Made by a program: the position numbers and the translations under genes
Notes under the pieces: model-generated
What the model was told of the DNA's origin: nothing
What the model saw: the letters and a program-made list of their open reading frames with translations, nothing else
Database searches by the model: none
Shown: one piece after another, positions 1-525 of the stretch
Layout: every line of letters begins with the position of its first letter
Position numbering within the stretch: the first letter of the stretch is position 1
From: Escherichia coli
Lineage (GTDB): Bacteria > Pseudomonadota > Gammaproteobacteria > Enterobacterales > Enterobacteriaceae
Assembly (NCBI RefSeq): GCF_003334385.1
Contig: NZ_QOWN01000170.1
Reading direction: 5' to 3' (one strand)
Length of the DNA stretch: 525 nucleotides

Positions 1-525
1 CGGAAGGGGTGATACGGATGCACGACGAGCGGACCCACCACTACGACAGCCAGCACCGCCTGGTGTTCTACACGCGGATACAGCACGGCGAACCACAGGT
101 GGAGAGCCGGTACCTCTATGACCCGCTGGGCCGCCGGACGGGAAAACGGGTATGGCGGCGGGAGCGTGACCTGACGGGGTGGATGTCGCTGTCGCGTAAA
201 CCGGAGGTGACATGGTACGGGTGGGACGGTGACAGGCTGACGACGGTACAGACCGGCACCACGCGTATCCAGACGGTATACCAGCCGGGGAGCTTCACGC
301 CGCTCATCAGAATCGAAACAGAGAATGGCGAACAGGCGAAGGCGCGGCACCGGAGCCTGGCGGAGGTGTTGCAGGAGGACACGGGTGTGACGCTCCCGGC
401 GGAGCTGGCGGTGATGCTGGGGAGGCTGGAGCGGGAACTGCGCGCGGGAGCGGTGAGTGCGGAGAGTGAGGCATGGCTTGCGCAGTGCGGGCTGACGGCG
501 GAACAGATGGCCGCGCAGATGGAGG
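1..525 (+). CDS. Rhs-family YD-repeat protein, internal fragment of the conserved core (partial at both ends; reading frame begins at position 3)
   Basis: Frame +3 is open across the entire window (174 sense codons, no stop). The translation contains YD-repeat motifs ([33 protein letters not shown]) and the stretch [24 protein letters not shown]...[18 protein letters not shown], which I recall as closely matching the E. coli Rhs core; this is memory, not a search. Third codon positions are strongly G/C-biased (about 83% by my manual count, G-ending codons dominant), which supports this frame as coding. Internal ATGs (18-20, 183-185, 414-416, 507-509, 519-521) are not starts because the frame is open upstream to the window edge. 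I cannot tell which paralog (rhsA/B/C/D-like) from this fragment, so no gene symbol is given. Confidence 0.9.
39..71 (+). repeat. Degenerate YD-repeat (Rhs repeat) motif, protein level: [11 protein letters not shown]
   Basis: In-frame peptide [11 protein letters not shown] fits the loose YD-repeat consensus (YD followed a few residues later by R-L-hydrophobic). It is a protein motif, not a nucleotide repeat. Confidence 0.55.
108..140 (+). repeat. YD-repeat (Rhs repeat) motif, protein level: [11 protein letters not shown]
   Basis: In-frame peptide [11 protein letters not shown] is a near-exact match to the Rhs/YD consensus RYxYDxxGRL(T). This is the best-conserved repeat in the window. Confidence 0.75.
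213..245 (+). repeat. Degenerate YD-repeat motif, protein level: [11 protein letters not shown]
   Basis: In-frame peptide [11 protein letters not shown] is a YxYDxxxRLT variant with Y replaced by W; the same aromatic-x-aromatic-D ... RL(T) register as the other two motifs. Confidence 0.6.

Follow-up and report, generated by a model that had tools for sequence, protein, structure and literature searches.

Does a short fragment of an Rhs core gene represent one of several near-identical copies in its genome, mapping equally well to several loci, or does it come from a lineage with a single chromosomal home? This question is raised by the stretch of 525 bp analysed here in its full length, hereafter called the window. 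An exact-sequence match identifies it as the whole of the 525-bp contig QOWN01000170.1 in the draft Escherichia coli assembly GCA_003334385.1, and the corresponding protein, RCQ53754.1, is labelled 'RHS repeat protein, partial [Escherichia coli]'. Our analysis indicates that the window is very probably an internal piece of the GC-rich, conserved core of a Clade I Rhs gene in E. coli, belonging to the rhsG/H lineage, which is normally present in one copy per genome, and that it was left as a stand-alone contig broken by a repeat.

The coding assignment is straightforward. One stop-free open reading frame spans all 525 bases in frame 3 of the plus strand (codons from nt 3 to nt 524, 174 amino acids). 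Its translation aligns in register with the NCBIfam model NF041261 'RHS element core protein' (profile positions 968-1148 of 1261, E 3.8e-101) with 339.7 bits, a score to be read against a curated cut-off of 2000 bits that applies to the whole protein and is out of reach for a 174-aa fragment. A full-length relative that carries the same segment, apart from a 6-bp indel, reaches 2505.5 bits against this model, above the 2000-bit cut-off, and contains, besides its YD-repeat stretches (Table 1), the Rhs-associated core domain. The window corresponds approximately to residues 972-1148 of the 1414-aa T6SS-linked Rhs protein of strain N18-04097, whose intact gene occupies positions 6087-10331 of the genomic context L015, with the window match at 9001-9531. 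The motifs YDPLGRR and WDGDRL can be read in the window translation, and the Pfam RHS_repeat model gives a weak match only (aa 35-47, E 5.2). With default megablast, annotated RHS genes are matched by the window in 3721 of 5426 complete E. coli genomes. The preliminary description of the window as an Rhs core fragment is therefore borne out by the open frame, the profile match and the annotated genes. This is known biology, a generic annotation of a known gene family.

Other readings of the same DNA were set aside. The window has a GC content of 62-73%, well above the E. coli average, and two minus-strand ORFs of 88 and 55 aa were taken as chance ORFs of GC-rich DNA inside a strongly supported plus-strand Rhs frame. 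A scan of the window against Rfam gave no match, and a tandem-repeat scan returned a trivial 9-bp repeat (2.1 units) and no meaningful one. The possibility that the feature belongs to a phage or a plasmid was rejected: a 40-mer spanning the deletion junction described below had no match in viral or phage contigs, and only 11 plasmid records matched the window, mostly weak matches or mislabelled chromosomal pieces.

Table 1. Coordinates of the features discussed for the 525-bp window
Feature	Position in window	Strand	Remarks
Site of the 6-bp in-frame deletion	37..44	+	Alignments: ACCACTAC in the window versus ACCACTACCACTAC in every other copy examined
Clearest YD-repeat unit of the window	111..146	+	Read from the translation; the full-length relative has six TIGR01643 stretches
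Most conserved part between core lineages	151-300	+	81-95% identity (binned)
Most variable part between core lineages	301..525	+	51-73% identity to K-12 rhsD and rhsA per 75-nt bin; 15-nt indel
Seven single-base sites separating the window type from the second tandem copy	246, 306, 308, 395, 422, 437, 443	+	Copy 1 versus copy 2 in 300709 and P13-6
82-bp stretch identical in both tandem copies	444..525	+	Holds, or ends at, the junction of the alternative tip-linked 3' ends

The best matches among the 5426 complete E. coli genomes are identical to the window except for the 6-bp indel, and they point to one chromosomal region. In all five genomic contexts that were fetched, the gene lies between dnaQ/tRNA-Asp and yafV-ivy-fadE, within a type VI secretion island, the gene order being dnaQ, tRNA-Asp, T6SS genes, hcp, vgrG, RHS, a small ORF, ISAs1 and yafV. 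Strain N18-04097 has the intact form (tssE/C/B, hcp, vgrG, the 1414-aa RHS, the small ORF and ISAs1). The islands of 300709, P13-6, 2017.10.01CC and F1005 are decayed, and their RHS gene is a 5'-truncated remnant. Linkage to hcp and vgrG is thus present in the relatives, as an intact hcp-vgrG-RHS arrangement in N18-04097 and in decayed versions in the four other strains. The map position is the same as that of locus 1 (dnaQ-fadE) in Table 3 of Jackson et al. (2009; PMC2935791). Three E. coli subfamilies, rhsABCF, rhsDE and rhsGH, are distinguished by Hill, as cited by Jackson et al. (PMC2935791). Nucleotide identity of the window is 74% to K-12 rhsA/B/C and 82.5% to rhsD/E, within a family whose lineages are 18-26% diverged in E. 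coli. Because the map position is that of locus 1 and the other two subfamilies are too distant, the window is assigned to the third lineage, rhsG/H; this putative placement combines map position with the exclusion of rhsABCF and rhsDE.

Divergence between the core lineages is unevenly distributed along the window (Table 1), and several megablast matches end at window position 365-379. The variable 3' 40% encodes a stretch without YD motifs that ends in AAQME. The 5' truncation of the locus-1 Rhs remnant differs between strains, being located at L001 7304, L007 11919, L013 19916 and L008 10002. Relative to the window start, these points lie approximately 697 (L001), 82 (L007) and 85 (L013) bases upstream, and at window position 113 in L008. 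Each remnant adjoins a different truncated T6SS gene. Such varied truncation points, together with the different abutting T6SS genes, therefore indicate that repeated independent deletions erode the T6SS island.

How many copies of this lineage does a genome carry? They were counted directly by megablast against the 5426 complete E. coli genomes, repeated with stepwise stricter E-value limits and with full-length matches kept; identity thresholds were set indirectly through these limits, and the 95% and 90% figures given here are approximate. At the default threshold, which includes paralogs of 80-90% identity, 3721 genomes contained 10375 places (median 3, maximum 6). The number fell to 3038 places in 2370 genomes at E <= 1e-190, about 90% identity or more (median 1, maximum 3), and to 1054 places in 1006 genomes at E <= 1e-235, about 95% or more (median 1, maximum 2). 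At E <= 1e-268, which allows at most one mismatch plus the indel, 61 genomes had exactly one place each (61 places). About 48 genomes, approximately 5% of carriers, have two copies at about 95% identity or more, and approximately 95% of carriers are single-copy. In both two-copy genomes examined, 300709 and P13-6, the second copy is located 6.8-7.1 kb downstream in the same locus and differs at seven sites of the window. The 95-99% identity band contained 877 records in the default search and 1005 in the strict search, a discrepancy that may come from the choice of the best place or from the joining of pieces, and that leaves the counts of copies per genome unaffected.

These counts disagree with the expectation of several near-identical copies, as there were at most two per genome at about 95% or more in the 5426 complete genomes. 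Nor do they support an equally good mapping of the window to several loci: about 95% of carriers have one copy at 95% or more, and none has more than two. A single-copy state in complete genomes had been named in advance as evidence against the copy-number claim, and in about 95% of carriers the claim fails in this way. The notion of a multi-copy family holds if the count extends to diverged paralogs (median 3, maximum 6), but not for near-identical copies of the window lineage. Similarly, the five copies of K-12, which had been given as an example, do exist as five rhs loci (plus an orphan fragment), but they belong to other core lineages that are 18-26% diverged from the window. In the window segment, K-12 rhsA, rhsB, rhsC and ybfO are 97.4-98.9% identical to one another and rhsD is 100% identical to rhsE, while the longest exact run that they have in common with the window is 20 bp for rhsA/B/C and 59 bp for rhsD/E. 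By extrapolation from the carrier genomes of other strains, the source genome would contain one or two copies.

The window differs from its closest relatives by a 6-bp in-frame deletion (Table 1), by which THHYHYDSQ becomes THHYDSQ and one unit of a tandem hexamer is lost from a YD-repeat motif. The extra hexamer is kept in all three K-12 core lineages and in both 300709 copies, and the best identity in the 5426 complete genomes, 98.9%, reflects the indel alone. Within the window lineage, none of the 5426 complete E. coli genomes has the deletion allele, and its junction had no match in 100k species-representative genomes. In metagenomes, four loci (L009-L012) have the deletion junction; they belong to a different Rhs lineage, 82-88% identical to the window, and were rejected as its source for this reason. 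One of them, L009 (contig OKVX01001758.1), contains tandem copies of this single-HY lineage at 217-731 and 5000-5533, 4.8 kb apart and 82% identical to the window. The single-HY form is also present in another E. coli Rhs lineage, P0029, with 178 member sequences. Slippage within the tandem hexamer is the likely cause of the deletion.

What lies beyond the window can be followed in its relatives. Their core ends with the motif PVQRGDPLGL or PIRYTDPLGL, 113 aa or 339 nt past the window end; this PxxxxDPxGL motif marks the border between the core and the variable toxin tip, and GC content drops in steps, the core having 0.646, the tip 0.485 and the following ORF 0.37. Two alternative tips were observed directly. 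Tip A (245 aa) follows the window-type segment in 300709, P13-6 and 2017.10.01CC, and tip B (153 aa) follows it in N18-04097 and F1005. Because an identical segment is joined to tip A or to tip B depending on the strain, the tip is not inferable from the window. The caution that had been voiced about linking a tip to this core was thus justified, but the call for long-range linkage was overstated, the boundary being only about 339 nt away. The alternative tips agree with the C-terminal displacement model of Jackson et al. (PMC2935791), and the exchange observed here is within one locus.

Tip A has no Pfam or NCBIfam match. At L001 8870-9607, it begins with an Ala/Gly-rich hydrophobic stretch and is followed by a small ORF, WP_001077738.1, at 9607-9984; both persist although the gene has lost its 5' part and the adjacent T6SS cluster is decayed. 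Tip B is located at about 9870-10331 in L015, in the RHS remnant CDS at 10002-11213 in L008, and in the second RHS CDS at 12186-16180 in L001. Because of a weak match to Pfam YkuD (L,D-transpeptidase catalytic domain, E 3.4e-5), its sequence suggests a peptidoglycan-targeting toxin. The small ORF after tip B, WP_001101839.1, is a candidate immunity gene.

The tandem copies reveal how cores and tips may have been re-assorted. In 300709, they share 1531 bp at 93.1% identity and are visibly mosaic, with about 500 bp free of mismatches (L001 7754-8250) next to a patch that is approximately 27% diverged. This patch of about 150 bp (approximately L001 7604-7753 versus 13888-14040) lies amid near-identical stretches of the tandem cores, and its divergence points to gene conversion in the past or to an exchange between subfamilies. 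The seven sites of Table 1 are seven mismatches at copy-1 offsets 252-449, at each of which the window has the copy-1 base. Divergence of the downstream sequences sets in with the first base past the window. F1005 resembles copy 1 at 7/7 diagnostic sites (to offset 449) and copy 2 at all sites from 532, and N18-04097 shows no difference from copy 1 between -700 and offset 531, departing from it only from 532. Junction-spanning queries at 99% identity or more retrieved the copy-1 type from 65 genomes, the chimeric type from 45 and the pure copy-2 type from 667, three sets that may overlap for intermediate genomes. The mosaic tandem copies and the chimeric junctions in tens of genomes support the earlier statement that cores act as recombination substrates.

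Insertion sequences are found at the same locus. In P13-6, two ISAs1/ISEc1 (H-repeat) copies (L013 22453-23589 and 29220-30356) flank the second Rhs element. In the single-copy strain 2017.10.01CC, one such copy is located at L007 14453-15589, and this strain looks like the product of a deletion between ISAs1/ISEc1 copies. If this is true, such a deletion would be a route of copy-number change that does not involve the cores. A bolder proposal, which we regard as quite improbable as it stands, is that the boundary 531|532, located 337 nt ahead of the core end, is a preferred exchange point for tip cassettes in locus-1 Rhs genes and, separately, that the HY-deleted motif, instead of being neutral or an artefact, is a genuine, functional allele arising from recurrent slippage at the hexamer. 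Each swapped cassette would then run from the final ~110 codons of the core through the toxin to the immunity gene.

The position of the contig ends is also informative. The last base of the window is offset 531, one base before the downstream variants diverge (L001 8531/8532; L015 9531/9532). This position fits a branch of the assembly graph and, because the contig ends exactly at the divergence point, suggests that the source genome contains at least two sequences sharing the 3' end of the window. At the 5' end of the contig there is no divergence point in the compared genomes, copies 1 and 2 being identical from 258 bases upstream to offset 251. The idea that both window edges are block boundaries of the tandem copies holds for the 3' end and fails for the 5' end. 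One might speculate that the 5' end marks a graph branch created by the HY/HYHY difference between two copies (with k around 45), which is numerically possible; we set this idea aside, as it conflicts with the behaviour of unitigs further along.

Related fragments are abundant in draft genomes. The 90%-identity protein cluster of the window has 55 members, and each of the 15 members listed, from E. coli or Shigella sonnei drafts, is a partial protein encoded on a contig of 253-1117 bp. Of 37 related protein clusters, 27 consist of partial RHS proteins from contigs shorter than 2 kb, and some count their members in the hundreds to thousands; this share is inflated by the selection of candidates, the protein search list containing short proteins only and no full-length ones. 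No 100% match was found among the cluster representatives in the protein homology search. Fragment ends vary between assemblies, only P0041 shares the 3' end of the window, and there is no single universal break point. That short-read assemblies break in this core, as had been anticipated, is nevertheless well illustrated by the window itself, a whole contig, and by the short contigs of its cluster and of the related clusters. A repeat was probably the cause of the break.

Other origins of the contig have to be considered. The window could be strictly single-copy, its contig being short because a GC-rich stretch was poorly covered, because the assembly is of low quality or because the contig follows a minor variant path. 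The GC content of 62-73% is in line with this, as is the single-copy state of about 95% of carriers at 95% or more, and a low-coverage or alternative-path contig could also account for the 5' end, which otherwise lacks an explanation, and for a 6-bp deletion that is unique. We still consider such an origin unlikely, as a random break would fall on the exact divergence base only by a roughly 1-in-500 coincidence, and sub-kb fragments of the same segment come from many independent assemblies. In addition, even where a genome has a single copy of this lineage, paralogs of the rhsD/E type share exact runs of up to 59 bp with it, enough to tangle small-k graphs. The deletion itself might be an artefact of assembly or sequencing, the true sequence being the common allele. 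Its absence in the window lineage from the 5426 complete genomes is compatible with an error, and so is the lack of any match to the junction 40-mer in viral contigs or species-representative genomes. However, the deletion is in frame and removes exactly one tandem-hexamer unit, a classic product of slippage, and clean 6-bp deletions are rare from Illumina assemblies. With the contig reported in two samples and the single-HY form recurring in the P0029 lineage (178 members) and in metagenome Rhs genes, an artefact appears rather improbable.

It is far harder to maintain that the window is one of at least three near-identical core copies in its genome, mapping equally well to each of them in the manner of K-12 rhsA/B/C. 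Some lineages do behave in this way, as the identities among K-12 rhsA/B/C/ybfO (97.4-98.9%) and between rhsD and rhsE (100%) attest, and default megablast gives a median of three places per genome. Yet the extra places at the default threshold are paralogs of 80-90% identity, with exact runs of at most 59 bp, too diverged for ambiguous mapping; none of the 5426 genomes has more than two copies at about 95% or more than three at about 90%, and all 61 near-exact carriers have one. This reading is extremely improbable, and the copy counts have already largely refuted it.

We therefore favour a repeat-broken fragment of an rhsG/H core that is normally present once per genome, for which the following scenario can be proposed. 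The home of the rhsG/H lineage is the type VI secretion island at tRNA-Asp, between dnaQ and yafV. In the intact form of this island (hcp-vgrG-rhs-small ORF), the window segment would encode part of the YD-repeat shell, about 113 residues before the PxxxxDPxGL motif; in the light of established knowledge of Rhs proteins, it would be part of the shell of a T6SS-delivered toxin. The Rhs family is multi-copy overall, with lineages 18-26% diverged, and the window lineage is normally present once per genome, with a second copy about 7 kb downstream, differing at seven window sites, in about 5% of carriers. Between paralogous or tandem cores, the sequence is exactly the same over limited runs (82-500 bp for the tandem copy, up to 59 bp for rhsD/E) and diverges beyond them. 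The 525-bp stand-alone contig would exist because a short-read assembler could not cross such a core. Homologous recombination within the common core sequence may finally re-assort cores and tips.

To call Rhs cores multi-copy is not appropriate for every lineage alike. In most strains, the window lineage is effectively single-copy for read mapping, the lineages being sufficiently diverged. Its core still breaks short-read assemblies, and the toxin tip that it carries cannot be told from the core alone. For annotation pipelines, sub-kb contigs labelled 'RHS repeat protein, partial' are assembly debris of a known family and not novel features. The value of these observations is mainly practical; they do not advance an open biological question.

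Among known systems, the closest to the window is the locus-1 Rhs protein WP_106379582.1 of N18-04097, to whose gene it is identical in the same frame over 525 bases, apart from the 6-bp indel. This protein is an NF041261 RHS_core equivalog, encoded 3' of hcp-vgrG and 5' of a small ORF and ISAs1; unlike it, the window lacks one HY dipeptide (6 bp), and its contig ends inside the core. The cores of K-12 RhsD and RhsE belong to the same family and align in the same register, with 82.5% nucleotide identity and a 59-bp exact run around the HY motif. However, they are 17.5% diverged from the window, with a 15-nt indel in window 376-450, and are located at different loci, in the ybbP and yncG regions. 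They are too diverged from the window for ambiguous mapping or efficient homologous exchange. RhsA, RhsB and RhsC of K-12 also belong to this family and are the original 'rearrangement hot spots'. Their mutual identity is 97.4-98.9%, and they are documented substrates of RecA-dependent unequal crossover (PMC2935791). In contrast, the window is 74% identical to them, with a longest exact run of 20 bp, and their multi-copy near-identity does not carry over to its lineage. More distant homologues from other genera, Tse5 (PDB 8cp6), RhsA (7q97) and Tse15 (8uy4), align with the full-length relative over the YD-repeat shell (E 4e-114 to 1e-61). This likeness, which rests on the sequence of the full-length relative, to solved T6SS Rhs effectors supports a putative role of the window segment in a toxin-enclosing shell.
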